Assembly (NCBI GenBank): GCA_023264635.1
Contig: JAHFLT010000006.1
Location: forward strand, 33,730-56,507
DNA length: 22,778 nt
Origin: Candidatus Woesearchaeota archaeon
GTDB lineage: Archaea; Nanobdellota; Nanobdellia; Woesearchaeales; JAGVYF01
Reading direction: 5' to 3'
Below the pieces are notes generated by a model. That model made no database searches. It was not told the origin of the DNA and saw only the letters and a program-made list of their open reading frames with translations. Of the stretch, positions 2,799 through 22,778 are shown one piece after another (position 1 is the stretch's first letter; every line of letters begins with the position of its first letter). Position numbers and translations under genes: made by a program.

Positions 2799-3359
2799 AT
2801 GAGATGGTGGATAGTTGTATTATTCCTGATTTACCTCTCAGCTGCCTCTGCGACGACTTTTCTGCCCCAGACCCTTGATGATTTGGATAGGCAAGCTGAC
2901 TACATTATTGTTGGTACTGTCACTAACCAGAACGGTTTACAGGAGAATAAAACCATCAGCACGCAGACAGCAATAGCTGTCGAAGAGTGGGTGAGAGGAT
3001 CCTCGATAGGAGACACTGTAGTGGTAAAAGAATTGGGTGGCATTATAGGAGATGTCATGATGGTAGTTCCCGGAAGTCCTCATTTTGAGCAAAGAGAACG
3101 TGTGGTGCTTTTCATGAAAGAAGATAGCCCTGCACGATGGCGGCATCGTATAGCATATGGCCATACAGTTGGCATGGCGCAAGGCAAATTCTCTCTCGAG
3201 ACAGATGAACAAGGGAAAGAAATGCTTATCAACGACTTGGGTGGTGCACATCTGCTTATTGGAGAGAAACAAAAACCAATCTCACTCGCAGCATTCCGTG
3301 CACAGTTCAAGCAGAGTTTTCTGGCACAACTTCTCTCTTGGTTAAAGGTGGTCATGTGA
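2799..3359 (+). CDS. Secreted or membrane-anchored hypothetical protein (186 aa)
   Basis: There is an N-terminal signal-like segment, MRWWIVVLFLIYLSAASATT. No domain is recognisable. Its stop codon TGA (3357-3359) overlaps the likely GTG start (3356) of the downstream giant gene. Confidence 0.65.
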   Translation: MRWWIVVLFLIYLSAASATTFLPQTLDDLDRQADYIIVGTVTNQNGLQENKTISTQTAIAVEEWVRGSSIGDTVVVKELGGIIGDVMMVVPGSPHFEQRERVVLFMKEDSPARWRHRIAYGHTVGMAQGKFSLETDEQGKEMLINDLGGAHLLIGEKQKPISLAAFRAQFKQSFLAQLLSWLKVVM

Positions 3360-6300
3360 AAAGTAGCCATTGGAAAATTATTGCTACCTTCGTTTTCCTG
3401 CTTTTTTTCCTGACTCCCGTATCAGCATATGTCAGGGCAACCTTTGACTTACCTACAGGAGTCAAACACGTTTTTTGGCAGTCCTCAGATATGCCCATAA
3501 AATGGTCAACTACTGCTGCAGGCTCAGCAGATAGTACATTTGCGGAGATGTTCAGTGCCATTAACCACAGCTTTGGCAGATGGGAAAATGTCAGTTTCGC
3601 AAACATACGTTTTTCATATCAAGGGAATGTTACTTCTTATGTAGGAAACGATGGTGTGAATCTCGTTGCATTTGATGAGAATGGGTCATTGCTTGCAATG
3701 GGGCCATCAACGCTTGCAACGACACAATTCTTCATTTCAGTCTCAACAGGGAGATTGCTGGATGCAGATATCATATTCAATGGCAAGTCATTTACATTTT
3801 CTACAACAGGAAATAATTATGACATAGAATCAATAGCAACCCACGAAATAGGGCATCTTATTGGCCTTGATCACGCCATTATCGGCACAGAAACAGATAC
3901 TGCAAGCAGACCGACCATGACTCCTTATTATAGTGGATTGGATGGCAGAACGCTCGAGCAGGATGATAGAGCTGGTGTCGGTGTTATTTACCCTGGCACT
4001 ATTTTTTTAACAACAGGAAACATAAGCGGCAATATACGGAATGAACATGAAATCTTTGGAGCATATGTTGCTGCGCTCAATGCCAGCACAAACAAACCAG
4101 TTATTGCTGTTTTTACGGGATACCACACTGGGAAAGGTATTGAGGGAGAAGGGGATTATCAAATGCTTGGATTGGAAACCGGAGTCTATACGCTAAAAGT
4201 GACGCCAATGGACGGCTTCAACGGAATAACCTCAAGTAATTTTAATGGGATATTCTCGACTACTTTTACTCAGGGGTTTCGAACGCAATTCTATAATAAT
4301 ATGTTTCACCAGGGAATTGCGAGGAATATAACTATTGAACCAAATACCGCATTTGTTGCTTCATTTAATGGGGTTATTGCACAGGTGAATATCTCGCTAT
4401 CCCCTGACCAGACTGTGCCTGTGGGAAATGATGCACGATATTCTGTTTTTGTAGGCAATACGGGAAATGATAATGACAATTTCACGCTTGCCATTGTTAG
4501 TAATAGCGATGCAAACGCCGGTGTGAATGCTACATTTAATCAGACATTTTTCTCCAATGTTGCAGATGGAGAAAAACGCACGGCACTTTTGATAGTGCAC
4601 AGCACTCTTGCGAGAATGAACACAATAACGCTCAATGTAACGTCACAAGCTAATGCATCTGCAGGTACAAGCGCTACTGTGGTGACAACAGTGATAACTA
4701 ATCTCTCTGTATCACTTATCTCCCCACAAAACAACAGCTTCAGCGCATCTTCTGTCCCTAATTTTATCTGCAATGCGACGGGTGGGCCACTGCAGAGCAT
4801 GACACTTTTCTATTATGGAGTAAATAGCAATAATAGTGATACTATCGATAATACCTCCACTCAGATTAGAGGTAATACCTCCACGATTCTAAGCGGTACA
4901 ATAAACAAAACGCAATTTACACTTTCTCTTCCCGATGGACGATTATTGTGGAGTTGTACAGCTACTGATTCTTTGGGCAATACAGCTTTTGCAGATACCT
5001 TTACCTTCACCATAGATACACATACACCTGCTGTTCATTATATTAGCCTTAATGCCTCATACCTAAAACCCAATTCACCAATACTTGTTACTGTAAATGC
5101 AACAGATGCAGTGACGAATGTATCTGCTGTCTTTGTAACTGCCATCTCTGCCACTTCCCTTTCGGGTAATAGTACTCCTTTGGTGAGAAGAGAGAGAAGT
5201 GGTGCATTCTTCGGCGGCAGTATTTTCAGCAATAGTATTCAGGGGCAATCCACTCGAGGGTCACACACATTGTCGGTTGTCACAAGTGACAGTCTCAATA
5301 ACACGGTAACGAATCTTACTTCCTACGTCGTGGATGCTGATAATCCAACAATAACCCCTTATGTTCCCGTTGGTCCTATTAGAGCTTACAATGCAACGTT
5401 CATTTGGCAGGTGGAGGACAACCTGAGCAGCACCAGCCTTACTGTAGATGGTCTCCTTCAGGCGGTACCGATTATTAATAAAACGATGGATGTGCAAAAT
5501 TTCTCTGCAACAATCACTGGCTTGCGATCAGGCATGCATGAAATGAGTATTACAGCAACAGATAATGCATCTAATTCTGCACGAATCACTTTTACTTTCT
5601 CGCTGTTCCATGAGGAAAATCTAACGGAAATGGTACAGCGACTCTTAACAGCTGGTCGTGGACAGCTAACAAATATTACCTATAGTGATATACTGGGAAA
5701 TCTCCTCTCTGGCGCTATTTCCGCTAACCAAACGATCATCAAAGATTTTGTCATCAATTCCTCTCTTGTAGGTGTTAATGCATCAGTTACTATAACTGCC
5801 TTTGGTGAGAACTATGATGAAACGAAAGCTTCCTCTGTATCAGTTGAAGCAAACCGAAGGAGTGCCCTTGCTTCAATGGTGGGCTCACATCTTGGGGGAG
5901 ATCCTCCAAGGGCAATTGTCCTTTTCCAGAATATGAGTCACTATGTTACTACTTATTCACTACAGAACGGCACGAGTACTTTTGTTACGCTCACATTTAA
6001 GCAGCTGCTTGGTTCTCTGCTACCATTTTATGTTGCTGATGATGATGGCACTTCTGTTTACCTTCTCAGCCGCTGTGCCAATAACAGTCCGCCAACAGGA
6101 ACACCCTCACTCAGCACGATGTGCTATACAAATTCTACCACAAGCGTCATACTGTACGTGCCCCATCTCTCTGGCGGAGGATTGGATGACCCTGCAAATG
6201 CACCGGCCATAAAGCTCACAACACCAACAACTGTTATAGACAATTCATTCTTTACTGCACACGGCACTATCCAAGATTTAAATCTTGATACAACAAGCTG

Positions 6301-7687
6301 CGATTACACTATTACCAAAAGCATTACTACTAACAGCAATTCAAATGCTATTGCCACTACTGGAAGATTCACTCCAACACAGATAACATCCACTAATTAT
6401 ACTTTTTCAATAGGTGAACTTACTGACTTGGCTAATGGAACCAGCTATAATTTCACCGTAAGTTGTGCTTCTACGGACACCAACAGGACAACACTTCTAC
6501 GCCAGTTCATTGTTGCTGATACAACACCACCGAAAACCACAAGCATAACAATCAGCGGTATAACCTCCTCACGTTCAACAGGAACTCTCACTGCTGTATT
6601 TGCAACAGATGAGACAGCAGTCTGTGGCTATAATAGCACTGCACCAACATCATTATTGTCATCTTTTTTACAGGCAGATACCACGTTAAGCAGTGTAGAT
6701 AATAACGGTAGAATTGATAACAAAACCCATACTTATTCTAAGACATACACAGCAGACGGTACTGTTGTTGTTCCATCAGTGGTATGCGTAGATCTGAATG
6801 GTAACAGTCAAACACAAGGCAATGAGAGCTTTTCAGTAATGGTGAATGTGGAGAAACCGCGTGTTTTTGCAGCTGATGGAGGTGGAGGAAGGGGTGGAGG
6901 AGGTGGAGGTGGCGGAAAAGCGACTGCCAAAGTGAACAGCCCTGCAAAAATCACCAAAGTAGCTGCAAACATCGCAAAGGGACAAACTGCTGTCCTAAGC
7001 ATGATCACCAAAGAAGTAGCGTTGACCCAAATAGCATTCACTGCAACGGAATTCATCCCTAAGCTCACTGTTATAGCGATAAGGCTTGTTGACATTCCGG
7101 GCGTGCCGGAACTGCATGATCTCGTCTACGAATATCTCAATATCACGACTACTCCAAGAATAAACGCCAGTGATATCCGTCTTGAGCTGCGTGTTGCAAA
7201 AGAATGGCTAACTGCAAATAAGGTGGATACTTTAGGTTTCTATCTTCTGGAGAACGAAATATGGCAGCAGATTCCCCTTTCAAAGACTGGTGAAAGCGAT
7301 GTGCAGGTAACCTATACAGCAAAAACTCCTCATCTCAGTTTGTTTGCACTTGCAGGCGTGACAGGAAAAAATAAACAAAAAGAAGAACAGAGCAAGGAAA
7401 AAAAAGAAAAACAGAGTGATGATGCAGTAACACGAAACCAAACAGAACAAACAGAACAAGGAGCTAAAAAAGAATTGCCATTTCCCGGACAGATTAAGCA
7501 GGGAAATGAAAATGGCACGACACAAGTGCCCATGGCTATGCACCTTGCTACGTTACTATCTTCTCCAAAGCTACCATCCTACAAGTTACTTTTTATTGTC
7601 CTTATTGTGGCTCTGGTTATTACATTACTGATACACATGGTTCATGGACCAATGCACAAGCCACTACGGGCGCAGAGAAGAAAATAA
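3356..7687 (+). CDS. Giant secreted surface protein: N-terminal metzincin (matrixin/M10-like) Zn-protease domain, Ig/CARDB-like repeats, Gly hinge, PGF-pre-PGF-like domain and C-terminal TM anchor
   Basis: The signal peptide is KIIATFVFLLFFLTPVSAYV. The Zn motif HEIGHLIGLDH (HExxHxxGxxH) lies at 3842-3874, followed by a Met-turn candidate RPTMTPYY. A CARDB-like segment reads YSVFVGNTGNDNDNFTL. The Gly run DGGGGRGGGGGGGGK lies at 6878-6916. The segment at about 6950-7357 ends PHLSLFALAG and resembles the archaeal PGF-pre-PGF domain. The C-terminal TM is LLFIVLIVALVITLLIHMV, followed by the basic tail KPLRAQRRK. The track start is TTG 3338. I prefer GTG 3356, which is preceded by GGTGG (3347-3351). 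Confidence 0.85.
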   Translation: MKSSHWKIIATFVFLLFFLTPVSAYVRATFDLPTGVKHVFWQSSDMPIKWSTTAAGSADSTFAEMFSAINHSFGRWENVSFANIRFSYQGNVTSYVGNDGVNLVAFDENGSLLAMGPSTLATTQFFISVSTGRLLDADIIFNGKSFTFSTTGNNYDIESIATHEIGHLIGLDHAIIGTETDTASRPTMTPYYSGLDGRTLEQDDRAGVGVIYPGTIFLTTGNISGNIRNEHEIFGAYVAALNASTNKPVIAVFTGYHTGKGIEGEGDYQMLGLETGVYTLKVTPMDGFNGITSSNFNGIFSTTFTQGFRTQFYNNMFHQGIARNITIEPNTAFVASFNGVIAQVNISLSPDQTVPVGNDARYSVFVGNTGNDNDNFTLAIVSNSDANAGVNATFNQTFFSNVADGEKRTALLIVHSTLARMNTITLNVTSQANASAGTSATVVTTVITNLSVSLISPQNNSFSASSVPNFICNATGGPLQSMTLFYYGVNSNNSDTIDNTSTQIRGNTSTILSGTINKTQFTLSLPDGRLLWSCTATDSLGNTAFADTFTFTIDTHTPAVHYISLNASYLKPNSPILVTVNATDAVTNVSAVFVTAISATSLSGNSTPLVRRERSGAFFGGSIFSNSIQGQSTRGSHTLSVVTSDSLNNTVTNLTSYVVDADNPTITPYVPVGPIRAYNATFIWQVEDNLSSTSLTVDGLLQAVPIINKTMDVQNFSATITGLRSGMHEMSITATDNASNSARITFTFSLFHEENLTEMVQRLLTAGRGQLTNITYSDILGNLLSGAISANQTIIKDFVINSSLVGVNASVTITAFGENYDETKASSVSVEANRRSALASMVGSHLGGDPPRAIVLFQNMSHYVTTYSLQNGTSTFVTLTFKQLLGSLLPFYVADDDGTSVYLLSRCANNSPPTGTPSLSTMCYTNSTTSVILYVPHLSGGGLDDPANAPAIKLTTPTTVIDNSFFTAHGTIQDLNLDTTSCDYTITKSITTNSNSNAIATTGRFTPTQITSTNYTFSIGELTDLANGTSYNFTVSCASTDTNRTTLLRQFIVADTTPPKTTSITISGITSSRSTGTLTAVFATDETAVCGYNSTAPTSLLSSFLQADTTLSSVDNNGRIDNKTHTYSKTYTADGTVVVPSVVCVDLNGNSQTQGNESFSVMVNVEKPRVFAADGGGGRGGGGGGGGKATAKVNSPAKITKVAANIAKGQTAVLSMITKEVALTQIAFTATEFIPKLTVIAIRLVDIPGVPELHDLVYEYLNITTTPRINASDIRLELRVAKEWLTANKVDTLGFYLLENEIWQQIPLSKTGESDVQVTYTAKTPHLSLFALAGVTGKNKQKEEQSKEKKEKQSDDAVTRNQTEQTEQGAKKELPFPGQIKQGNENGTTQVPMAMHLATLLSSPKLPSYKLLFIVLIVALVITLLIHMVHGPMHKPLRAQRRK

Positions 7688-8824
7688 GACATCTTCATAT
7701 ACATCCTTATATAATTTAGTCAGCGCCGGAATCTTTCTCTGCCAGAAGTACTCTTTCACAAACTCTTTTGCATCTTTTCCAATAGATATCAAGCGCTGCT
7801 TATTGCTCAGTAAATGCTCCAGCACGCGTGAAAATTCTTCTGGATTATAAATATCAACTGTAAACTCTTTGTCAACAAGCTCGCTGAATGATGGATTGTG
7901 TTTTGAGACAAGAGCAGCAGTTCCCAATGCCTGTGCTTCAAGAACAGCATAACCAAACTCATCATAAAGTGATGGTGCAACTAAGAGGTGACTCCTCGCG
8001 ATGTACGCTAAAGCCTCTTCACGCGGAAGTAAGCCCAGCACGTGTATCTGTAATTGTGAGTATTTCTCGCGCACGTTGGTAAATCTCGGAGGGATCTCTC
8101 CAATAAGCTGTAATGTAAACTGGAGAGAATGGTTTCTGTCATGGACCATAGCAAGAGCATCCAAAAGATAACGCAGTCCTTTCCTTTTGGTGAGGATATG
8201 GTGTCTTCCGACAAAAGTAATGGTCAACGTCTCATTTTTTGTTTCTTTCTTCTTCTCTTTCTGTTCAGGAAGTGTTATGCCTGGTGGAAAATAAATGACA
8301 TTATATCCTTTCTCAGCCAGTGCATTAGTCACATAATGTGTTATGCCAAGAGACAGTTTTACTTTCTGAAGAGCTAGGTGATCCTTTATGCTCATCTCCA
8401 TCTCCCTGATGCATCTGTATGGCAATAACAGGACAGAGGAATACTTTGCAGCAAGCTTGCAGCATTCCCGTGGTCTTTTTGGAAAATCCCAAGCAACACC
8501 GATGATTGGAACAGTAATAGTGTGATATGGCAAGTGATCAGCTGTGTGAAAAATATCCGGATGTATGGAATTGACCAGTGCGCTAAGCCTTGGGCCAAAA
8601 AAGAATGGCTCTATTAAAGAAAATGGCGGGAGTTGCTTCACTCGTCTCAAAAGAGCAAATAGAGTTGATGGAACCTGATGAAATTGGAGCTTGTTCTTCT
8701 CAGCGAGCTCTTTTGCCTCTCCAATGACATGGACATCATGATGTTTGCTCAGCGCTGCAGCAAGTTCTATAATGTATGTCCCAATTCCAGAACCTTCTGT
8801 GTAAGGATAAAGGCAGATTTTCAT
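7664..8824 (-). CDS. Glycosyltransferase, GT-B fold, GT4-like
   Basis: The C-terminal half contains PSLYDEFGYAVLEAQALGTAALVS, which resembles the GT4 EX7E region. The length of 386 aa and overall layout are typical of GT4. It lies directly downstream of aglB on the same strand. Confidence 0.8.
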   Translation of the reverse strand: MKICLYPYTEGSGIGTYIIELAAALSKHHDVHVIGEAKELAEKNKLQFHQVPSTLFALLRRVKQLPPFSLIEPFFFGPRLSALVNSIHPDIFHTADHLPYHTITVPIIGVAWDFPKRPRECCKLAAKYSSVLLLPYRCIREMEMSIKDHLALQKVKLSLGITHYVTNALAEKGYNVIYFPPGITLPEQKEKKKETKNETLTITFVGRHHILTKRKGLRYLLDALAMVHDRNHSLQFTLQLIGEIPPRFTNVREKYSQLQIHVLGLLPREEALAYIARSHLLVAPSLYDEFGYAVLEAQALGTAALVSKHNPSFSELVDKEFTVDIYNPEEFSRVLEHLLSNKQRLISIGKDAKEFVKEYFWQRKIPALTKLYKDVYEDVLFSSLRP

Positions 8825-8876: not shown

Positions 8877-11615
8877 TCATATCCTTGTTGCTGCAGGATT
8901 TTCATGCTCGAAACCTATGTACTGCTTGCGCTTGTTCTCGTCCAGGAAAAAATCTTTTGGATAATTGATTTTCCAGATGCGCATTGGCCCGATGAGACGA
9001 CCATTGTACATTAGAAGAGGCATGTTGTTGCTATCATCATATACTGATTCAAATGAATCTGTAGGAAAATCAGGATTTTTCTTGTCGAAAAGATAGAGGT
9101 TAGTCCATAAAGCATGAATGCCTACTTCCGAAACATAGAGCCCAGCACCAATAGGATTCTGCTGTTTTCCATTAATCGATGGCATAATCCGTAAGCACCC
9201 CTTTAATCCCTGTTGTGGAAACTTGATGTATTGTCCATTAATGTAGATGCATTCCAAAGGAATATCTGTTCTTTGACCATTGCTATTGAAGATAGCTGCT
9301 GCTGGTTGCAGCACTGCTGTCTGTTTCACGGTTGTATTACCTTGCTTAACAGAAACTTCTGCAAATGGAACAAAAAAACCACCAATGCCAGCAGCAGCTT
9401 TTGGATAAAGCTGGCCATTATACATGAAGTCATGATCCAGAGGATACTGTCCCTGATAAAGAAAAATTGTACTGTTTCTCGTTTCACGTGTCTGCTGAGG
9501 ATTTATAGTGAATTCATTAATCCAGCTGTATCTATCATAATTTTCGTCTGAGCCAATGGAAGAAAACGCTGTATATTTTCCGATTTCATCAGAAACCATC
9601 AAGAAATGGGAGGCGTTATGTGCAGCAAGGACATCAAGAGCTTCTGTCTGGTTTGCGGCAGTAAGGACATGTCTTCCCATCTGATAGTTCCAGTAACTAT
9701 GTTCATTCCCGCCATCTGTTACTGTTGCACGTCCACCACCCGTTTGAATCCAATATCCATAATCCCACCAATGTGCGAAAACTGCATCTAGTGGGGTATT
9801 TCTTCGCACCCAGTCCATACCAAACTGCCACTGTTGGTTATATGGGCTTCCGGTATATGATGCCTGGGCTTTTGAGCCTTCATAATATTGGAAGAGCAAT
9901 CCTTTTCCGATACTCCCACCAAGCGACATTGGAGAGAGCACAAGCAATGCCAGTATCACTAACGCAGGGATGCGATAGGTTTGATTATGCAAAGCATAAG
10001 CCAGTTCGAAAAGGCGGGTGGTGAAGTAGCCAAACAAGAGCGTCGTGATTGGAGCAAAGGTAAATAACAGTCTGATAGCTCCACGCGCCCCGATGACCAT
10101 GAAAAAGAACCAGACGAAGATAAGGACATATATTTTATTTATCTGTGCTACTGTTTCGTAAAAAGTGCCTTTATTCTCTTTACTTTGATAGAATAGATAA
10201 AGGTACAGACCAAGAAATCCACCAATAAACATAACAAGTGAGCCCAGATAGAGCCAGACTGATAATGTGTTTGTGCCGTTCAATAGAGATGATTGAGAAT
10301 ATCTGCTGTAGGTGAGACTAAAGATAAATGCAACATAAAACAACACTATTGTTGGTATAGACAGATAATGAGTCTGTAATTTCTTCAGAAGATTAGCGAG
10401 TGGTTTAATGGTCTCGTAAAAGAGAAAGATCGAGGCAAGCAGGAAGAAGATGACATAGTACTTTCCCATCTGGCCATACCAGTCAACAAGATACGGCTGA
10501 TGTTGCTCTGCTACTGTCAGTTGCCACCTGTCTTTCCCCCAAGGAGAAATTAAGTCAGTGTATAATTTTCCTGCTTTATTTGAGAGGAAGAATGGCCCGT
10601 GAACAACAGAAATGACAATGAATCCCAAAATAACAATGCAGAGGATAGAAGTGATCCCGCTTGGCATATTTTTTCTCAGCAAATCTGCCTGCCCAAAGAG
10701 GTTTTTTTCAAAGAGGAAATAATAAACTGTCGCCATGCCAAAAGCTGCTGAGGCAAGTTCAGTTGTTGTTGAACCAATAAGCTGGCTGATGTCAAACAAA
10801 CCCAGATAGTCTAATCCGCTTGCGAATGTCACAAACCAGGCAGTGTATGCATAGTATTCATTTTCATGGAAAACGTTAAGAAATATCTGTATAATCGTTG
10901 TTCCGCCAAGGATAAGGTAAAGGAAGTTACCTCCACCGGGCCATACTATAACCATGAGAATAGTGGATAAGCCAGTCAGGAAGCCAACAAAAAGACCGCT
11001 CCATTTCTTTTCTTGCTTCAATGCAATGATGTAAAGATACAGCGAAAGTGTCAGCATAAGCATGCCAACAGCATCGTGATCAGCTACCCCCGTCATTGTC
11101 CTAAAAAGATAGGCAGGGTGATAGCCAAGCGCTGCTGTTGCAAGAAGTGCTGCAGGCGCACTAAAAACTGTTTTCACCAGCAGGAAAAAAACGAAGAGCG
11201 TTATGCCCAAAACAATAGAGGGATAAATGACATAAATATAATCATAGGTTACTGTACTGTTAAAAAAGTGGATGAACTTATACAGATAAGCAAGGAAATA
11301 GGGAAAGCCAACTAAAGGATGAAGAAGCGGTTCCCAATATTCACCTACAGGAACAAATCTCATTGGGTCAAATGTAGGATGAGTGCCATGCTCCAGTATG
11401 TACTCACCATAACGATACCATAAAAATGCATCTAAATCAGCTGCTATGTATTTTCCCGTTGTAGCATCCTTAAGGGAGCCAAGATTGGCAAAGCGGAAAG
11501 ACAATGAAGTGTAGATAATGAACGCCAACAAGAGCCATATAATCAGTCTCTTATGGTCTTTCAAAAACTGTACAAGCTGCTGCCTTCTTTCGTCTTCATT
11601 CATTTTTATCCTCAT
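8877..11615 (-). CDS. aglB: Archaeal oligosaccharyltransferase AglB (STT3 family)
   Basis: The WWDYG catalytic motif (VFAHWWDYGYWIQ) is encoded at 9756-9770 on the minus strand. The N-terminal half is multi-TM and the C-terminal half looks soluble. The length is 912 aa. An alternative start is ATG 11603. Confidence 0.93.
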   Translation of the reverse strand: MRIKMNEDERRQQLVQFLKDHKRLIIWLLLAFIIYTSLSFRFANLGSLKDATTGKYIAADLDAFLWYRYGEYILEHGTHPTFDPMRFVPVGEYWEPLLHPLVGFPYFLAYLYKFIHFFNSTVTYDYIYVIYPSIVLGITLFVFFLLVKTVFSAPAALLATAALGYHPAYLFRTMTGVADHDAVGMLMLTLSLYLYIIALKQEKKWSGLFVGFLTGLSTILMVIVWPGGGNFLYLILGGTTIIQIFLNVFHENEYYAYTAWFVTFASGLDYLGLFDISQLIGSTTTELASAAFGMATVYYFLFEKNLFGQADLLRKNMPSGITSILCIVILGFIVISVVHGPFFLSNKAGKLYTDLISPWGKDRWQLTVAEQHQPYLVDWYGQMGKYYVIFFLLASIFLFYETIKPLANLLKKLQTHYLSIPTIVLFYVAFIFSLTYSRYSQSSLLNGTNTLSVWLYLGSLVMFIGGFLGLYLYLFYQSKENKGTFYETVAQINKIYVLIFVWFFFMVIGARGAIRLLFTFAPITTLLFGYFTTRLFELAYALHNQTYRIPALVILALLVLSPMSLGGSIGKGLLFQYYEGSKAQASYTGSPYNQQWQFGMDWVRRNTPLDAVFAHWWDYGYWIQTGGGRATVTDGGNEHSYWNYQMGRHVLTAANQTEALDVLAAHNASHFLMVSDEIGKYTAFSSIGSDENYDRYSWINEFTINPQQTRETRNSTIFLYQGQYPLDHDFMYNGQLYPKAAAGIGGFFVPFAEVSVKQGNTTVKQTAVLQPAAAIFNSNGQRTDIPLECIYINGQYIKFPQQGLKGCLRIMPSINGKQQNPIGAGLYVSEVGIHALWTNLYLFDKKNPDFPTDSFESVYDDSNNMPLLMYNGRLIGPMRIWKINYPKDFFLDENKRKQYIGFEHENPAATRI

Positions 11616-16489: not shown

Positions 16490-16656
16490 CTTTGCTGATG
16501 CGAAATGTTTAAATTACCTGCATAGTTTGTCGCTTTTTATGGATGAAAGTATCAGCCCAGTATGCCAGAACTGCGTGAAGTTTAAAGTATTTGGCAAGAA
16601 TTGCTGGTATTATTGGGAAGGAAAGAAAGTCTGCTCGATGAAAGAGGAGGAGTAAG

Positions 16657-16962
16657 ATGGGGCTATTCAACTGGTTGTTTGGGAAAGAAGAACAGAAGCA
16701 TAAGCCAACGGCAACAAGAACGATTCCTGTCATCCAAGAAACAAGTGGTTGTTGTTCTCAGGAAGCTTCTCATGGCGGTTGCGGATGTTCTGATACTAGT
16801 GACCACAATGAGGAAAGTACTGTGAGCAAGCAGGCACGTCTTGAGACATGCTGTGGCAGGTGCCCATGCCGAACAGAAGATGCCCAACACGGAGAACAGT
16901 GTTGTTTCTCCTGCTGTTGCAACCAATTGGATAACATCAGGCAGTTTACATTTAAGGGGTAA
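16657..16962 (+). CDS. Small cysteine-rich protein (101 aa, 13 Cys in CC/CxC clusters)
   Basis: A strong Shine-Dalgarno (GAGGAGG) lies 5-6 nt upstream of the ATG. The sequence is MGLFNWLFGKEEQK...GCCSQEASHGGCGCS...CCGRCPC...CCFSCCCNQ. A pyrimidine/T-rich tract follows the stop. I recognise no family. Confidence 0.65.
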   Translation: MGLFNWLFGKEEQKHKPTATRTIPVIQETSGCCSQEASHGGCGCSDTSDHNEESTVSKQARLETCCGRCPCRTEDAQHGEQCCFSCCCNQLDNIRQFTFKG

Positions 16963-17057
16963 GACAGTCTCTTCCCAACGAATATCTCTTTATCTCTTTG
17001 TAGTTCATGTATTTTCTTTTCCTTACTTCTTCTCTTTCGGTAATGGAGCTCTAATAA

Positions 17058-17182
17058 CGCGCCTGATGGGATTCGAACCCACGACCTTCGACTTAGGAGG
17101 CCGACGCTCTCTTTGGCTTTCGTCTCTGTCTGATACGGTCCTTATACATAGACGCCAAGTATCCAAACTGAGCTACAGGCGC
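17058..17182 (-). tRNA. tRNA-Arg (anticodon CCU) with a ~50-nt intron in the D-loop (non-canonical position, about 20/21-21/22)
   Basis: Hand-folded from the minus strand. The acceptor stem is GCGCCUG/CAGGCGC with discriminator G. The 5' D-stem strand GCUC and D-loop AGUUUGGAUA are followed by about 50 nt (about 17110-17159, CUUGGCGUCU...AGACGAAAGCCAAAGA), and then the 3' D-stem strand GAGC. The anticodon arm is UCGGC-CUCCUAA-GUCGA, the variable loop is AGGUC, and the T-arm is GUGGG-UUCGAAU-CCCAU. CCA is not encoded. A TATA-like cttttaagg is centred about 28 nt upstream. Confidence 0.85.
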
Positions 17183-17255
17183 ATAGATGTGTGGAGAAGG
17201 GAATTCCTTAAAAGTGTTTCCCTCTCCAGAGAAGATATAAACACTTTATACCTTC

Positions 17256-18431
17256 ATGAAAAACATGGAAGGATTATACGAACCCGGAGAAGATACGTTT
17301 TTGCTTGCGTCAGTGCTGCCAAACTATCGGCTAGGAAGAGTACTGGAAATAGGAACAGGAACCGGCTACATTACAGCTGCTGCTGCAAAGAAAGCAAAGC
17401 ATATACTGGCTGTTGATGTTGATTCAAAAGCAGTAAAATACTGCAGAGAACATCACAAACTGGACCACGTCACTTTCCGGCAAAGTGATCTTTTTTCTCG
17501 TGTTAGTGGGAGGTATGACACCATCATCTTTAATCCACCATATCTCCCTTATGATAAACGGGAACCGAAACAGTCACAGCTTGTAACTATGGGAGGAAAA
17601 CATGGTTACGAACTGCTGACGAAGTTCATCGCTAAAAGTCCGTCATTTCTTACAGCGCATGGCCGGATTCTGATTGTTTTCAGCTCGTTGACAAATAAAC
17701 AGAAGGTAGATGAAGCGATTATAAGTACTATGCTTGAAAAAAAGCAAGTGGTATCAAGGAAAATACCCTTTGAGGAGCTGTTTGTTTACTGCATCAGAAA
17801 AAGTAGCTTGCGGCAGCAGCTCGAGAAAGGAGGAATGAAAGAGCTTTTCTTTTTTGCCAAAGGCAAAAGGGGATTTGTATTTACTGGTCTATTGAGAAAA
17901 AAAAAGGTAGCTGTCAAAGTGCATAATCCGCAATCGCCGGTACTCAATGCATTGGCACGTGAAGCTAGGATGCTTCGATTTGCGAATCGTTTGGGAATTG
18001 GTCCACGTCTAATAGCAAGCGGAAGAGAGTATGTCATCTATCAGTTTGTTGAGGGTGAGCAGATAAGTTCCAAGGTGGCATCATTATCCAGAAACCAATT
18101 GCGATTGCTGATAAAACGAATAGGAAAACAATTATTTGTGCTGGATAAAGCTGGTATAGCGAAAGAAGAGATGAGTAATCCCTATAAGCACATTATTATT
18201 ACTTCACAATTAAAACCAGTGCTCATTGATTTCGAGAGGGCGCGTAAGACAAAAACACCGCACAATGTTACTCAGTTTTGTAGTTATCTCCTGCATTTGC
18301 AAGCGCAGGTAAAGAAAAGAGGAATACATTTCTCAAGAAAAGATGTCATTGACTGGGCTAAGCATTATGCTCTCTTATCGCCTTCAAAAAGAGAGCAACA
18401 TCTTAATAAACTAATGCACATTCTTTTCTGA
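17256..18431 (+). CDS. Fusion protein: HemK/Mtq2-type N5-glutamine (NPPY) methyltransferase domain plus a Bud32/RIO-like small kinase domain
   Basis: The N-terminal domain shows YEPGEDTFLL, motif I VLEIGTGTGYI and the catalytic IIFNPPYLP. The C-terminal domain (from about residue 195) shows AKGKRGFVFTG...VAVKV (P-loop plus Lys), REARML, VEGE, GIAKEEMSNPYKHIII where HGDLTTSN would sit, and LIDFERA (DFG-like). There is no stop codon between the two halves. An alternative start is ATG 17265. Confidence 0.75.
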   Translation: MKNMEGLYEPGEDTFLLASVLPNYRLGRVLEIGTGTGYITAAAAKKAKHILAVDVDSKAVKYCREHHKLDHVTFRQSDLFSRVSGRYDTIIFNPPYLPYDKREPKQSQLVTMGGKHGYELLTKFIAKSPSFLTAHGRILIVFSSLTNKQKVDEAIISTMLEKKQVVSRKIPFEELFVYCIRKSSLRQQLEKGGMKELFFFAKGKRGFVFTGLLRKKKVAVKVHNPQSPVLNALAREARMLRFANRLGIGPRLIASGREYVIYQFVEGEQISSKVASLSRNQLRLLIKRIGKQLFVLDKAGIAKEEMSNPYKHIIITSQLKPVLIDFERARKTKTPHNVTQFCSYLLHLQAQVKKRGIHFSRKDVIDWAKHYALLSPSKREQHLNKLMHILF

Positions 18432-18433
18432 AC

Positions 18434-18994
18434 ATGGAAGACTCTACAAAGCAGCGTCTGGCAGCATTCAGGAAGCAACTAGTGGATGAACTAATTAAGC
18501 AAGTGGCTTGTGACGTCAAACAAGACAATGAGGTTACCGAGAAAAAATATCATATGTATACTGTGGAATACGTTGCGAAGATGATTGAAACAGACAATGA
18601 TCATGCATTTGTAACAGAGCTCTTTAAGGAAATGATACGGGTGTATGCTGATAATGAAACGTACTGCGCTCGCATGTTTGACGCGTATAAGAAGCAGCCA
18701 GCTTTAACAGAGCATTTGTCTGATATGGAAACTTACTACGTCACAGCAAAGAAAGAATTTCCAGTCTATTCTCCGGCATATCTTGCTTACAATGCGCTGG
18801 TTGATGCATACAATGTCGGCTTGGAAAAAGAGATACTGTATTCTAAAATAAGTAATACTCTCTATCAGCTGAAAGACGCACGTGACAAGCTAACGCTGGT
18901 GGATTACAGAGAAGAATTCTCCGGGAATATCACCAAGCTACAGCAGATATATCTGGAACATTATCAACTGCCCGACAGTAAGAAATGCAACTAG
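18434..18994 (+). CDS. Hypothetical protein (186 aa, apparently helical, Tyr-rich)
   Basis: The ORF starts 2 nt after the upstream stop. I recognise no domain. Confidence 0.6.
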   Translation: MEDSTKQRLAAFRKQLVDELIKQVACDVKQDNEVTEKKYHMYTVEYVAKMIETDNDHAFVTELFKEMIRVYADNETYCARMFDAYKKQPALTEHLSDMETYYVTAKKEFPVYSPAYLAYNALVDAYNVGLEKEILYSKISNTLYQLKDARDKLTLVDYREEFSGNITKLQQIYLEHYQLPDSKKCN

Positions 18995-18999
18995 GCTAC

Positions 19000-19491
19000 A
19001 TGCGAAGAATTTATTATGATCAACTGGCTGCAGGATATGATGAATTATATGGTGATGAGCAGCTGCAAAAACAAAATCTCATTCAGCATACCCTTCTTTC
19101 TTTCCTCTCTGCAAATAGTACCATACTAGATGTCGGTTGCGGCACAGGCATATCGCTTGCTCACAATGCGTTTGGAATTGATCCAAGCTTTCAACTGCTG
19201 CTCAGGGCAAAAAAAAAGAGCCATTATCTTATACACGGTGTTGGAGAGGCATTGCCCTTCAAGGATACTTCATTTGATGTCGTGCAATGTGTTACTGCGT
19301 TGCATAATTTCACGGATTGGAAAAAAGGGATAGGTGAGATGAAACGGGTCTCAAAACAATTGATTGTACTCTCTCTATTGAAAAAAGCTGATGCTTTTCA
19401 TGAGATGCGAAAGATGATTGAGCAACACCTCTGCGTTGTAGAGACCAAAGATGCTCATCAAGATATCATTTTTTTCTGCAGGAAGAAGTAA
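19000..19491 (+). CDS. Small class I SAM-dependent methyltransferase (Methyltransf_11-like)
   Basis: Motif I is ILDVGCGTGISL. The post-I and later motifs are GIDPS, LPFKDTSFDVVQCVTALHNF and MKRVSKQLIV. The track start at 18985 overlaps the upstream gene by 10 nt. The in-frame ATG at 19000 (MRRIYYDQ...) leaves a 5-nt gap. Either start is possible. Confidence 0.75.
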   Translation: MRRIYYDQLAAGYDELYGDEQLQKQNLIQHTLLSFLSANSTILDVGCGTGISLAHNAFGIDPSFQLLLRAKKKSHYLIHGVGEALPFKDTSFDVVQCVTALHNFTDWKKGIGEMKRVSKQLIVLSLLKKADAFHEMRKMIEQHLCVVETKDAHQDIIFFCRKK

Positions 19492-19515
19492 TGTTCCTCT
19501 TCGGGAAAGATCATT

Positions 19516-20073
19516 ATGGCACAATGGAATGGTGATATTTCTGTCTCATATCTGTCGTATGCGGCAAGATTATCCTTAAAAAGCTATCTTGCTTACGAAT
19601 ATATGTGTCACAAAGCTGTCACAGGTGGAAGAATGTCATGTAATGGTCTCAATCTCTTATGTGGAATCGAGGGAAGTGGAGGGAATGGGCGTTGTTACAT
19701 CGGTAGGGAAACTCCCATCTCTTACGAAACCAGTGGTGGGCTTTATCTTACTGCGGAGAGGGATACCTATGAACCAGCCATTGAAATAACAAGGCCTTTG
19801 TACGCCTCTTCCAAGCACAGCGATGTTGAATTCTGGAAGCCACTCCTATTCTATGGACCGGTTCAAAGAGACACTCCATCTGCTAAGGAATTTGGATTTT
19901 CGTATCATCCGACATTAGATTTGGCACTGACGTATCTTGGCATTCCACAAAAATCACTATCTCCCCTAAAAACATCACCCATTAAATCATTACCTATCTT
20001 TGAAAAAGAACGCCAGCAGTTAGAAGAGCTTATTGCGCAGGAAAAGCGCAGGATGGTGCAGCGTGCAGCTTGA
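19516..20073 (+). CDS. Hypothetical protein (185 aa) with a Gly/Cys-containing N-terminal half and a Pro-rich segment plus amphipathic helix at the C-terminus
   Basis: The ORF ends 4 nt before the AAA+ gene start. The tail reads LGIPQKSLSPLKTSPIKSLPIFEKERQQLEELIAQEKRRMVQRAA. I recognise no domain. Confidence 0.6.
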   Translation: MAQWNGDISVSYLSYAARLSLKSYLAYEYMCHKAVTGGRMSCNGLNLLCGIEGSGGNGRCYIGRETPISYETSGGLYLTAERDTYEPAIEITRPLYASSKHSDVEFWKPLLFYGPVQRDTPSAKEFGFSYHPTLDLALTYLGIPQKSLSPLKTSPIKSLPIFEKERQQLEELIAQEKRRMVQRAA

Positions 20074-20077
20074 TATC

Positions 20078-21190
20078 ATGGTACGGAAAGCTGAAGAACA
20101 TGAACTTTTTGCTGAAGAAGTAGCTGATAGTGAAGAGAGGAAAACGCTTTTTCTTGAAGCGGCAGAAATTTATGTCAACGTTTCGAAGATATGCTCATCA
20201 CATCAAGTAGCTCACTATGTGCAACGCGCAAAAGAATGCTACCTCAAATCGCAGCAAAAAAAAACTGTAATCTCCCCTATAATAATAGAGACAAAGATAA
20301 TAGAGACAAAGAAAGTGTCTTTTGATGATGTAGTCGGCTTAGAGAATGTGAAAGAAAAGATACGTCTGAAAATCATTGAGCCATTTAAGCATCCTGAACT
20401 GTATACGTACTTTGGAAAAAAAATAGGAGGAGGGATACTCATGTATGGCCCTCCTGGCTGTGGTAAGACGCTGCTTGCGGAAGCTGCTGCACATGAGGCG
20501 GGATGCGCTTTCTTTTCTGTGAGCGTTGGCAGCATCACCAGCAAATACGTTGGTGAGACGGAGAAGAACATCACTGAGCTTTTTACGCAAGCAAGAGAGG
20601 CTGCGCCAAGCATTATCTTCTTTGATGAACTGGAAGCGCTTGGGAGCGAGCGGAGCAATGCAACAGAATATGCGCGAACTGCAGTGAGTCAACTGCTGAC
20701 TGAGATGAACGGCCTCGGAAACAGAGAACAGCACATTTTGTTGATAGGGGCAACCAATGAGCCATGGAACGTTGATATTGCACTTCGCAGGCCGGGCAGA
20801 TTTGGTGACCACCTTTTTATTCCACCGCTTGATTTCAAGGCTCGGTACAAGTTGCTGAAGCAATATCTTAAAAATAGACCGCTTGCAGGTGATGTGAATT
20901 TAATAGCAATAGCCATTGAGACACAGCACTATTCCGGAGCAGATATCGTAGCACTTTGCGATGATGCTATCGAGCATGCATTGACAGACTCGCTAAAGGT
21001 GAAAGCAGCGCGCAACGTGACAATGGATGACTTCATCAATGCATTAGCACAGAAACATGCAAAGTCCACAATTCAATGGTTCAAGATGGCAATCAAAGAA
21101 CTGGAAAAGAATAAGGATGAAAGCTTTCAGGAGGTGGTGATAGAAGGAAGGAAAGTGCTTTCTGCTGCATTGCGGGAGGTTGTGGCATGA
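20078..21190 (+). CDS. AAA+ ATPase (single AAA domain) with an N-terminal MIT-like three-helix region; Vps4/CdvC-like or Cdc48-related
   Basis: Walker A is GPPGCGKT and Walker B is IIFFDELE. The second region of homology is GATNEPWNVDIALRRPGRF. The N-terminal ~70 aa (EERKTLFLEAAEIYVNVSKICSSHQVAHYVQRAKECYLKSQQ) resemble a MIT domain by eye. The track start at 20033 would overlap the upstream gene, so I prefer the in-frame ATG at 20078. Confidence 0.85.
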   Translation: MVRKAEEHELFAEEVADSEERKTLFLEAAEIYVNVSKICSSHQVAHYVQRAKECYLKSQQKKTVISPIIIETKIIETKKVSFDDVVGLENVKEKIRLKIIEPFKHPELYTYFGKKIGGGILMYGPPGCGKTLLAEAAAHEAGCAFFSVSVGSITSKYVGETEKNITELFTQAREAAPSIIFFDELEALGSERSNATEYARTAVSQLLTEMNGLGNREQHILLIGATNEPWNVDIALRRPGRFGDHLFIPPLDFKARYKLLKQYLKNRPLAGDVNLIAIAIETQHYSGADIVALCDDAIEHALTDSLKVKAARNVTMDDFINALAQKHAKSTIQWFKMAIKELEKNKDESFQEVVIEGRKVLSAALREVVA

Positions 21191-22086
21191 TTAGTGTTAC
21201 CTATCTCATTAATGCGGGGTGCAATGAGCGCTGCCTTTTCTGCTTTAATCATTGGCGGGAGAACGGCCTTATGGATACGCTGCCTCATGACAAAAAAGAG
21301 TATATTGTGAAAAAAATATGTGACATGCGCCCAGAACATCTTGCATTCTCTGGAGGAGAACCGCTGATAGATAAGCATTTTGTTGCATTGCTGCAGTATA
21401 CACGCCAGCAGATGCCCAACCTTATACTGTCTGTGCAGACAAATGCGACGTTGCTTACTGAGGATATTACAAAAAAAATGAAAGCAGCTGGTGTTGCATA
21501 TATTCTGATTTCGCTGCATGGGCAGGAGAATGAACACAACGCACTAACTGGGGCAAAACTCTATACCAAAACAATCATGGGAATAAAAAACGCAATTGCT
21601 GCTCATATTCCCGTTGTGATAAACACTGTTGTTACAAGCCAAAATATTGCAGCTCTGCCACCTTTCCTTAAGGATGTTGGCAGTTTGGGTGTTTCTGCTG
21701 TTCAACTGTCTGCACTGTATGCAGCTGGCTCTGTCATCTCTAGAAAATATCTTTTTCCATCACCCGGTCAACAAAAGGAACTCGTCAGTGCTGTTACCAC
21801 TATGATATTACCGTATACTTTATCCTTTCATGCATTTGATAGGGAGATTGTTGCGCCATATTCTACCGATTCGTGTGGAGCGGGCGAGCAGGAGATCGCT
21901 GTTTTTCCCAATGGAGATGTCACGTTATGCCCAGCATGGGAGCAAAGCTATGGCAATCTGCTGCAAGATGACTGGACTGTGATCATCAAGAGAATTGAGC
22001 AGGGGTTGGTTGTGGAAAGTGAGCGTAAAACAGCATGCAATGACTGCGGCGGCTGCCTCTTGTCAAAGAAAGCTGCTGTTGCATAA
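21187..22086 (+). CDS. Radical SAM enzyme with a C-terminal SPASM/twitch-type auxiliary Cys cluster domain
   Basis: CNERCLFC (CX3CX2C) lies at residues 12-19, followed by SGGEPL. The C-terminus shows C-x12-G-x4-C (CGAGEQEIAVFPNGDVTLC) and then CNDCGGC. The start ATG overlaps the AAA+ stop (ATGA at 21187-21190). Confidence 0.8.
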   Translation: MISVTYLINAGCNERCLFCFNHWRENGLMDTLPHDKKEYIVKKICDMRPEHLAFSGGEPLIDKHFVALLQYTRQQMPNLILSVQTNATLLTEDITKKMKAAGVAYILISLHGQENEHNALTGAKLYTKTIMGIKNAIAAHIPVVINTVVTSQNIAALPPFLKDVGSLGVSAVQLSALYAAGSVISRKYLFPSPGQQKELVSAVTTMILPYTLSFHAFDREIVAPYSTDSCGAGEQEIAVFPNGDVTLCPAWEQSYGNLLQDDWTVIIKRIEQGLVVESERKTACNDCGGCLLSKKAAVA

Positions 22087-22115: not shown

Positions 22116-22778
22116 TCACACACGCCATGTAACAGCAACATCATCAGTACGCCAATATGGCATAATTTTCGATTTTTCAATGGGCGTTACACGTCCAGCT
22201 TTATGTTCAATAGTGCCGAGCCACGCAATCATCGCACCATTATCGACGAGGAACTCATTTGCAGGGACAAAGCACTTTGCATGTCGCTCTTCACACATCT
22301 TCTTAGCCATTTCCTGTAATCGTGTATTGCATGCTACACCACCACCTAACAAAAGCTCGTTTTTTTCCGTGTGTGCCATGGCACGCTCGCTCACTTCCAG
22401 CGCCATCGCAAAAACTGTTTCCTGCGCAGAATATGCAAGGTCTTCTTTTGTATACTTGCCCGAGTCGTACTTCTGTTTGAGATTCGTCAGTATACCCCCA
22501 AAGCTGAGGTCCATTCCCTTGACTACATACGGGATTTGTATGAGTTTCTTTCCGTTGCATGCAAGCGCATCTATCTTTGGACCACCGGGAAAACCAAGTC
22601 CCATGTGTCGAGCTAACTGGTCGAGGAAGTTTCCAATGCCTATGTCCAATGTTTCGCCGAAGATACGATATTTGCCGCTTTCAAATGCTATTATCTGTGT
22701 ATTTGCTCCGGATACGTAAAGTAACACAGGATCTTTTGCTTGTGTTTTTATCCGTCCGATTTCGAGGTGAGCAATGCA
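22116..22778 (-). CDS. kae1: Kae1 (tRNA N6-adenosine threonylcarbamoyltransferase, KEOPS catalytic subunit), C-terminal part; the 5' end is off the window
   Basis: The reading frame stays open to the right window edge (...CIAHLEIGRIKTQAKDPVLLYVSGANTQIIAFESGKYRIFGETLDIGIGNFLDQLARHMGLGFPGGPKIDALA...). This matches the conserved Kae1/TsaD core. It ends without a fused Bud32 domain. Confidence 0.88.
   Translation of the reverse strand, partial: CIAHLEIGRIKTQAKDPVLLYVSGANTQIIAFESGKYRIFGETLDIGIGNFLDQLARHMGLGFPGGPKIDALACNGKKLIQIPYVVKGMDLSFGGILTNLKQKYDSGKYTKEDLAYSAQETVFAMALEVSERAMAHTEKNELLLGGGVACNTRLQEMAKKMCEERHAKCFVPANEFLVDNGAMIAWLGTIEHKAGRVTPIEKSKIMPYWRTDDVAVTWRV

Follow-up and report, generated by a model that had tools for sequence, protein, structure and literature searches.

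Two adjacent gene trios in a Woesearchaeota archaeon: putative modifiers of the translation apparatus and a conserved module of a small Cys protein, an AAA+ ATPase and a radical SAM enzyme

We analyzed six genes (g1 to g6, the six plus-strand open reading frames, ORFs, numbered in gene order between positions 17256 and 22086) in a 22,778-nt stretch of the Candidatus Woesearchaeota contig JAHFLT010000006.1, hereafter called the window. A preliminary description had regarded them as a single functional unit. On balance, we favor two adjacent and separable transcription units. In this reading g1–g3 would encode translation-type modifiers, and g4–g6 would encode a client protein, an AAA+ translocase and a radical S-adenosylmethionine (SAM) enzyme acting on a Cys box of the client. 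The units are considered separable because g4–g6 is preceded by its own conserved spacer of 141 nt with a TATA-like box, because an insertion of about 2.7 kb between the two halves is tolerated in the related locus L021, and because distant loci do not carry g1–g3. The earlier observation was largely real, with one junction corrected; the single-operon interpretation was only partly supported, and that of one six-gene functional unit was not supported.

No description of an AAA+/radical SAM/DPANN module, or of the structure PDB 8yv4 discussed below, was found in the searchable literature, a scope that lies outside the arCOG neighbourhood catalogues. The g4–g6 module is apparently undescribed.

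Results and discussion

Gene arrangement and the start of g4

The coordinates of the ORFs were checked, and the ends of all six were exact. The tight packing described previously was confirmed within each trio, in which gaps do not exceed 10 nt. g1 (17256–18431) and g2 (18434–18994) are separated by 2 nt, and g3 (18985–19491) overlaps g2 by 10 nt, or follows it after 5 nt from its second ATG. g4 and g5 (20078–21190) are 4 nt apart, and g5 and g6 (21187–22086) share an ATGA overlap. Other same-strand neighbours in the window are mostly 33 to 445 nt apart, and three pairs overlap or abut (−22, −20 and −1 nt).

These four junctions agree with the preliminary description; that between g3 and g4 had to be corrected. 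A gap of 24 nt is obtained because the longest ORF of g4, beginning at 19516, is taken. The alignment of g4 with its relatives begins only at residue 40 of this ORF, the homologues P0133 and P0135 begin at MSC, and stop codons interrupt the frame upstream of the g4 start in L011. The start codon of g4 is most likely the ATG at 19633 (MSC...) and not that at 19516, to judge from these comparisons, which gives a protein of 146 aa (19633–20073). Because the conserved start is located at 19633, the g3/g4 gap is 141 nt.

The spacer was aligned among four genomes, whose g4 proteins are about 36–46% identical to that of the window. Invariant non-coding blocks (19532–19627), with frame-breaking insertions and deletions between them, were found upstream of g4. 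The first block, GTGATATTTCTGTCTCATATCTG (19532–19554, 23 nt), lies at about −100 and has the consensus GTGAyATTTTTGTCTCATATCTG. The second, ATCCTTAAAAAGC (19572–19584), is similar to an archaeal TATA box; it is located at about −55, and its form across the genomes is ATyCTTAAAAA. The third block, ACAAAGCTGTCACAGGTG (19610–19627), is a leader that carries a GGTG Shine-Dalgarno sequence and ends with AGGTG immediately 5′ of the ATG. We infer that the spacer is a dedicated promoter of g4–g6. A run of seven T residues at the 3′ end of g3 (19469–19475, plus strand) is possibly an archaeal oligo-T termination signal, as far as the sequence alone can suggest. For annotation, choosing the longest ORF of g4 conceals the putative promoter and merges two operons into one.

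The conserved leader (19610–19627), which like the 23-nt block has equivalents in L011, L021 and L024, also contains a near-palindrome, CTGTCACAG, overlapping the Shine-Dalgarno sequence. This element, or the 23-nt block at 19532–19554, could be the operator of some regulator.

Conservation of gene order in related loci

Related loci were gathered from genome and metagenome collections with the AAA+ protein as an anchor, and additionally with the radical SAM protein. All six genes and kae1 are kept in order in L011, with 27–68% identity, and g3 to g6 are kept in L024. In L021, g1–g3 and g4–g6 are both intact, and the insertion of about 2.7 kb lies between g3 and the promoter-like blocks. It lies upstream of the conserved blocks and holds opposite-strand ORFs and, in the region 2957–5368 of that locus, the remnant of a DDE transposase. 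g1–g3 occur together only in the close relatives L011 and L021; neither g1, g2 nor g3 was ever found in loci with a 45–53% identical AAA+ protein (L002–L010, L025–L029). Loci with an AAA+ protein of about 46% identity keep only g4–g5, with or without g6. The six-gene arrangement is clade-local because the distant AAA+ loci never hold g1–g3. The synteny proposed as a check was thus seen in close relatives and was reduced to g4–g5, with or without g6, in distant ones; judged by whether homologues are scattered, as the preliminary description had suggested, the six-gene arrangement is only partly upheld.

These data bear on the proposal that the six genes work together as a single system, in which the methyltransferases and the kinase would modify a client processed by the AAA+ and radical SAM enzymes. 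We regard it as unlikely. Against it, g4–g6 is preceded by a conserved promoter-like spacer of its own, both halves are intact in L021 despite about 2.7 kb of foreign DNA inserted between them, no distant locus joins g1–g3 with g4–g6, and the domain content of g1 suggests a release factor or RNA as substrate. In its favour are the contiguity and shared direction of the six genes, their equal order in the window and L011, the contiguity of g3 and g4 in L024, and possible read-through across the 141-nt spacer.

Linkage of g4 and g5 was much more persistent. A g4-like gene is linked to an orthologous AAA+ gene in 17 of 17 distinct related loci from Woesearchaeota and Nanoarchaeia. In all 17 its end meets or overlaps the beginning of the AAA+ gene, or of a stand-alone three-helix gene in front of the AAA+ gene, and the adjacency persists although the flanking genes otherwise differ between clades. 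It is therefore very unlikely that there is no module at all, that is, that these are independent housekeeping genes packed by genome streamlining with synteny by descent. DPANN genomes are gene-dense, six-gene synteny is confined to relatives whose Kae1 is about 82% identical, and the window has some further same-strand pairs that overlap, all of which would fit such packing. However, streamlining does not readily account for g4-like/AAA+ adjacency in all 17 loci, which span clades with different flanks and an AAA+ identity of about 46%, or for the adjacency of the radical SAM gene, which outlasts divergence to 26–30% identity.

The loci were of two types. Type A loci (the window, L011, L021/22, L024, L020, L005, L007/27, L009 and L026) encode a g4-like protein with a multi-Cys N-terminus (MSCNGLNLLCG...RC or MSCGGSALL...SCGC) and have a g6-family gene directly after the AAA+ gene. 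Type B loci (L003, L004, L006, L008, L025, L028 and L029) encode a single-Cys N-terminus, MVCxPHxY, and have no radical SAM gene. In most of them, an extra stand-alone three-helix protein, a paralogue of the AAA+ N-terminal domain, is encoded between the g4-like gene and the AAA+ gene. Type B is nested inside type A in a neighbour-joining tree of the AAA+ proteins; because of this nesting, the radical SAM gene was lost in approximately one event, alongside the extra Cys residues.

Several observations were made on these loci. All three module proteins of type B begin with an N-terminal Cys motif: MVC in the g4-like protein, MC[S/D/E][I/V]K in the stand-alone three-helix protein and MC[N/G] in the AAA+ protein. 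The AAA+ proteins of the window's clade start without Cys, a comparison that did not include the distant type A clade. In that distant clade, a gene for a DUF488 protein (6e-20) directly follows the radical SAM gene on the same strand (L005 12149–12580, L007 6321–6842, L009 12101–12625 (+)); it is not present in the window's clade.

Mobile elements have struck the g4–g6 module repeatedly, in L023, L010 and L021. An ISL3 transposase in L023 (3295–5171) truncates the radical SAM gene and replaces the g4 and AAA+ genes, and a 24-bit radical SAM remnant in L010 (10869–11613) is followed by what appears, by eye, to be an insertion sequence (IS) transposase. These are the two damaged copies of the g6-family gene in type A loci.

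An apparently conserved ABC exporter near the module was discarded, as its cluster joined Rad50/SMC proteins and a clade-local ABC transporter through a shared ATPase domain. No protease or dedicated exporter was conserved near the module.

The small Cys protein g4

g4 is a small, fast-evolving protein. Its alignment revealed an N-terminal Cys box, MSCNGLNLLCGIEGSGGNGRCYIGR (19633–19707), a mid motif, EFGFSYHPTLDLALTYL (19888–19938), and a C-terminal amphipathic helix, EKERQQLEELIAQEKRRM (20002–20055). The mid motif, [DE]LGF[ST]Y[HN]P[TM]LD, is conserved within the window's clade. Across loci, g4-like proteins start with M-S-C or M-V-C and carry a short C-terminal amphipathic helix of the [KR]xxLxxxI[AQ]xE type, as exemplified by ERQQLEELIAQEKRR, RKRTLLEDLIAKEKE, KQRLLENRIAQAF and RDQLSFLIQAELG. 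Their lengths range from 120 to 230 aa, and their middle is poorly conserved.

Only five sequence relatives of g4 were found among 1.84 billion representative proteins, and a word-indexed homologue search with g4 returned g4 alone. g4 matched no family and no PADLOC model, and the g4-like proteins matched neither Snf7 nor any other Pfam family.

The AAA+ ATPase g5

g5 encodes a single-domain classical AAA+ ATPase with a lid (Pfam AAA, 1.2e-41, and AAA_lid_3). It contains Walker A (20447–20470), the pore loop KYVG (20543–20554), Walker B (20612–20635) and Arg fingers within a second region of homology (20750–20806). Of the NCBIfam models, CDC48 gave 219 bits (cut-off 803), PAN 205 (cut-off 500), FtsH 200 and CdvC (NF041006) 183.3 (cut-off 650); no cut-off was passed, and the core scored higher against Cdc48, PAN and FtsH than against CdvC. 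No match to Vps4_C (PF09336) was obtained. The C-terminus of g5 has no HbYX motif, and the C-termini of g5 and of P0003–P0007 lack a penultimate Tyr. The AAA+ homologue search, which was word-indexed, was swamped by two-domain Cdc48 proteins.

The N-terminal domain of g5 (aa 1–60, 20078–20257) was previously called MIT-like. It forms a confident three-helix bundle in the AlphaFold2 (AF2) model, with a predicted local distance difference test score (pLDDT) of 86; the bundle is MIT-like in shape, and assignment to MIT was not significant. No Pfam MIT match was obtained in six orthologues at E values up to 10, and Foldseek returned no match at E ≤ 0.001. The best reciprocal Foldseek match was the N-terminal domain of katanin p60 (2rpa; template modelling (TM) scores 0.68/0.69), which is not significant, and MITD1 gave TM scores of 0.47–0.51.

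In g5, a linker connects the three-helix bundle to one AAA+ ring whose pore loop is aromatic. Vps4/CdvC, which acts with ESCRT-III, and katanin and spastin are built likewise, and the product of the adjacent gene g4 has a short amphipathic helix at its C-terminus. A divergent ESCRT/Cdv-like or cytoskeletal pair, in which g4 would be a polymer analogous to ESCRT-III and would be disassembled by a Vps4-like ATPase, is nevertheless a remote prospect. Katanin p60 provides the best reciprocal fold match and the CdvC model gives 183 bits, but that model requires 650 bits and is outscored by CDC48, PAN and FtsH. In contrast to Vps4/CdvC, g5 has neither a Vps4_C/beta-domain nor a Pfam MIT match, g4 is not Snf7-like, and a radical SAM gene belongs to the unit.

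A second comparison is with Pup and Mpa/ARC, in which the N-terminal domain of an AAA+ unfoldase captures the C-terminal helix of a disordered tag, and with PAN. A small gene for a putative client without a recognized domain lies beside the ATPase gene, and docking of a helix followed by threading is plausible. Unlike Mpa, g5 has a three-helix bundle at the N-terminus instead of a coiled coil and an OB fold, and no HbYX for proteasome docking; unlike in the Pup system, there is no ligase or deamidase, and g4 has no C-terminal GGQ/GGE. g5 also differs from PAN/Cdc48 by its single AAA domain, its three-helix N-terminal domain and scores below the family cut-offs.

The radical SAM enzyme g6

g6 matches Radical_SAM (1.8e-21) and contains CNERCLFC (CX3CX2C, 21220–21243), CX12GX4C (21874–21930) and CNDCGGC (CX2CX2C, 22036–22056). 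The radical SAM assignment made earlier was therefore confirmed; a full SPASM domain was not, its score being 18.8 bits under a Pfam cut-off of 21.5. The CNERCLFC core is invariant across the g6 family. Because only three C-terminal (auxiliary) Cys residues are invariant family-wide, the C-terminal domain is twitch-like, that is, a truncated SPASM, and g6 probably carries one auxiliary cluster, as its motifs suggest. The protein begins 11 residues before the core motif, and for this reason it has no N-terminal RRE, the recognition element of maturases for RiPPs, which are peptides made on the ribosome and modified after translation.

The nearest PDB matches of g6 were remote (BlsE, 1e-6; SkfB, 1.3e-6), and all NCBIfam maturase models scored far under their cut-offs, as for StsB (77 vs 625) and PapB (51 vs 340). 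A hidden Markov model (HMM) of the g6 family matched only ORFs directly after the AAA+ gene in type A loci and none in the single-Cys type B clade. The family spans clades in which the AAA+ proteins are about 46% and the radical SAM proteins 26–30% identical. A radical SAM gene near the type B locus L004 was considered as a g6 counterpart and was found to be outside the family.

g6 resembles SPASM/twitch maturases (SkfB, the sacti- and ranthipeptide enzymes, PqqE/D/A and MftC/B/A) in its CX3CX2C motif and Cys-rich auxiliary domain, and its unit also encodes a candidate substrate rich in Cys. It differs from them in that there is no RRE/PqqD, g4 has its Cys box at the N-terminus and its putative recognition helix at the C-terminus, the candidate substrate is 120–230 aa long, an AAA+ gene is an obligate neighbour, and family scores are far under the cut-offs. 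Compared with sacti- and ranthipeptide maturases in particular, g6 has the CX3CX2C core but no full seven-Cys SPASM, no RRE and no passing family-model score.

A RiPP-like or peptide-cofactor pathway would make g4 the precursor and g6 the maturase, with the AAA+ protein as a chaperone in place of the RRE/PqqD, and it would yield a free peptide or cofactor instead of a modified protein. This is quite improbable in our judgement. The layout is like that of PqqA/D/E and MftA/B/C, in which a precursor lies beside a SPASM/twitch radical SAM enzyme, g6 has no RRE, and NCBIfam gave domain-level matches to sactipeptide, ranthipeptide and PQQ maturases. However, g4-like proteins of 120–230 aa with conserved mid and C-terminal motifs weigh against this reading, as do the lack of a conserved protease or dedicated exporter nearby, type B loci without a radical SAM gene, and maturase scores far under the cut-offs.

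The genes g1, g2 and g3

g1 encodes a fusion of an NPPY methyltransferase and a small kinase. The N-terminal domain (aa 1–185) contains the SAM motif EIGTGTG (17346–17366) and NPPY (17532–17543, aa 93–96). It passes two NCBIfam models, NF011529 (165.6 bits, cut-off 162) and TIGR00537 (134.2 bits, cut-off 87), and its best PDB matches are human HEMK2/N6AMT1 (7e-11) and microsporidian Mtq2 (3q87, 8e-9). By homology, then, this domain is assigned as a HemK2/Mtq2-type N5-glutamine methyltransferase.

The C-terminal domain of g1 (aa ~190–391) contains a G-loop, FAKGKRGFVF (17853–17882), VAVK (VAVKV, 17907–17921), the catalytic loop KEEMSNPYKHIII (18162–18200) and IDFE (IDFERA, 18225–18242). It matches TkArkI (7vnx, 4e-14 over 164 residues) and 8yv4 (2e-9). 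ArkI is a tRNA U47 2′-kinase with an HGQ triplet in the catalytic loop and a C-terminal YKR motif (Ohira et al. 2022, PMC9095486). The catalytic loop of g1 has KEE (GIAKEEM) where ArkI has HGQ, and 8yv4 likewise has KEE. No YKR was seen in the C-terminal domain of g1, and the YKR region falls outside the 7vnx alignment. On sequence similarity, the domain is classified as an atypical kinase of the AQ578/ArkI family, not demonstrably an ArkI orthologue: identity with ArkI is not proven because HGQ is replaced by KEE and no YKR was seen.

In summary of these comparisons, g1 is like Mtq2/HemK2 (N6AMT1) in passing two NCBIfam cut-offs and in having NPPY, and like ArkI in its homology to TkArkI and in keeping the G-loop, the beta-3 Lys of VAVK and the DFE metal-binding triplet. 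It is unlike both in that the two domains are fused, HGQ is replaced by KEE, and no Trm112 partner, with which HemK2/Mtq2 enzymes act on the GGQ motif of release factors, was seen nearby: no Trm112-like gene was found in the window, in which a Cys-rich ORF (16657–16962) matches no family. A Bud32 assignment for the kinase, suggested by the nearby kae1, was rejected, since NF011464 gave 20.2 bits (3.9e-4) against a cut-off of 246 and ArkI-family matches were far stronger. An ORF beside kae1 in L011, likewise considered as Bud32, is a methyltransferase.

g2 encodes an orphan all-helical protein of 186 aa, without a Pfam, NCBIfam, PADLOC or meaningful PDB sequence match. Its single-sequence AF2 model has eight helices (pLDDT 75). 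Cgi121, Trm112 and other known folds were considered and dismissed, as Foldseek TM scores did not exceed 0.38 and there was no meaningful PDB sequence match. L011 and L021 each carry a homologue in this position, with 27% and 46% identity, respectively. g3 (168 aa) matches Methyltransf_11 (7e-15), with YcgJ as the top PDB match (2.5e-7), and every NCBIfam match is far under its cut-off; it is best described, on these similarities, as a generic small class I SAM methyltransferase. The earlier domain calls, namely methyltransferase (MTS/HemK2) plus kinase in g1, methyltransferase in g3, AAA+ in g5, radical SAM in g6 and none for g2 and g4, were all reproduced with Pfam and NCBIfam.

Proposed roles of the two units

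We propose that unit 1 (g1–g2–g3, 17256–19491) is a clade-specific, translationally coupled trio of modifiers of the translation apparatus. From knowledge of the families, its targets would probably be a release factor (GGQ motif), tRNA or rRNA. The fusion of an Mtq2-type methyltransferase with an AQ578 kinase is unusual, and the uncharacterized ArkI-like subfamily with the KEE loop, to which 8yv4 belongs, may act on the translation apparatus.

Unit 2 (g4–g5–g6, 19633–22086) would have its own promoter; as a module it is conserved among Woesearchaeota and Nanoarchaeia. Its anatomy, the linkage of its genes and their motifs are observations; as for binding partners, chemistry and cellular role, we propose that the three-helix N-terminal domain of g5, a hexameric-type AAA+ protein, docks the C-terminal helix of g4 in the manner of Vps4 MIT–MIM or Mpa–Pup, and that the g5 hexamer then threads or remodels g4. 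g6, without a recognition element of its own, would modify the N-terminal Cys box of g4, possibly with thioether-type cross-links. Related SPASM/twitch enzymes form cross-links of this type.

A more specific version is tentative: g4–g6 may be a DPANN-specific system of protein maturation or remodelling, in which the radical SAM enzyme cross-links the Cys box of the client and the Vps4-like AAA+ protein captures the client helix, and type B may be its sister without a radical SAM enzyme, having a single Cys/His N-terminus and a stand-alone three-helix adaptor. If this is true, the system would be a hybrid of RiPP-type chemistry and unfoldase targeting of the MIT–MIM type. Should the model of unit 2 hold, it would be the first case known to us in which an AAA+ unfoldase is permanently paired with a radical SAM enzyme that modifies proteins; it would also offer a way of targeting a radical SAM enzyme without an RRE, and would assign a definite client to an archaeal AAA+ family that is still an orphan. 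DPANN genomes are tiny; three genes that stay together as a module in both Woesearchaeota and Nanoarchaeia are therefore probably important to these largely uncultured cells.

Several points weigh against the two-unit reading and its mechanism. The function of unit 1 is assigned by domain-level homology, and its kinase lacks the ArkI HGQ triplet. Contiguity of g3 and g4, as in the window, L011 and L024, makes read-through co-transcription of g1–g6 possible. The N-terminal domain of g5 is MIT-like in shape only, and the MIT-like assignment of the modelled bundle is not significant. Because the type B clade has no radical SAM gene, g6 is accessory to a g4–g5 core; because type B keeps Cys3 without it, this invariant residue must have a role independent of the radical SAM enzyme. 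The link between multiple Cys residues and the radical SAM gene comes from approximately one loss event, and is suggestive, not statistical. Homology among the three g4 subfamilies appears weak and is not statistically established: hhalign gave P values of 5.7e-4 (Cys box) and 0.016 (helix), and nothing for the third pair. As this sequence homology is weak, the equivalence of the g4-like genes is based on position and terminal motifs.

As proposed earlier, the combination maps to no named system: the module does not qualify as CdvC, PAN/Cdc48 or a sacti- or ranthipeptide maturase system, and it matches no PADLOC defence system. The idea of a modification-plus-remodelling module seems to fit the g4–g6 part and not all six genes. 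Likewise, of the alternatives suggested, housekeeping translation or tRNA modification seems to fit g1–g3, and novel maturation seems to fit g4–g6. An anti-phage defence system was rejected, because PADLOC returned only generic domains (IetA/TRIP13 for the AAA+ protein, pVip for the radical SAM protein, and mad2/MTase for the methyltransferases) and nothing for g2 and g4.

Flanking genes and other features of the window

The window is archaeal, with about 42% GC, and its nearest public relatives are metagenome-assembled genomes labelled Woesearchaeota or Nanoarchaeia. The same contig is present, identical, in two public assemblies.

The tRNA gene and kae1 reported to flank g1–g6 are both present. 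The tRNA gene (17057–17183, minus strand) has a non-canonical intron of about 50 nt and scored 29.4 bits with Rfam at 17066–17118, against a cut-off of 29. Default ARAGORN misses it, and the intron mode gives an implausible Tyr(ATA), which differs from our manual parse. By that parse, it would be Arg(CCU) with the intron of about 50 nt in the D-loop. The 3′ part of kae1 (tsaD family; TsaD, PF00814, 2.8e-49) occupies 22116–22778 on the minus strand, up to the window end. It is convergent with g6 and carries no Bud32 fusion, and its orthologues in L011 and L020–L024 are 81–83% identical.

An extra Methyltransf_11 gene (209–212 aa) lies between the radical SAM gene and kae1 in L011 (11922–12557, minus strand), L020 (1206–1844, minus strand) and L023 (5195–5824, minus strand). 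It is not present in the window, L021 or L024, and the radical SAM gene and kae1 abut or overlap there.

Two small coupled plus-strand ORFs, 16527–16655 and 16657–16962, are separated by 1 nt. The former encodes a 42-aa CxxC...C...C peptide without a Pfam match. The latter, the Cys-rich small protein of the preliminary description, is 101 aa long and very Cys-rich (CC, CGC, CCGRCPC, CCFSCCC). It has no Pfam family and no tblastn match in the related loci, and is not Trm112-like in appearance.

At the left end of the window, an IS200-type Y1 transposase gene (813–1283, minus strand; 1.1e-25) adjoins a gene for a Bro-N domain protein (1499–2353, plus strand; 2.2e-9), which suggests mobile or viral DNA. 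A cell-surface/glycosylation block comprises 3338–7687 (plus strand), 7664–8824 (minus strand) and 8877–11615 (minus strand), and encodes a 1449-aa protein, a GT4 glycosyltransferase and an STT3/AglB oligosaccharyltransferase. At its N-terminus the 1449-aa protein has a matrixin (M10) domain and at its C-terminus a hydrophobic segment that, by eye, is like a membrane anchor; it also contains a Gly-rich stretch.

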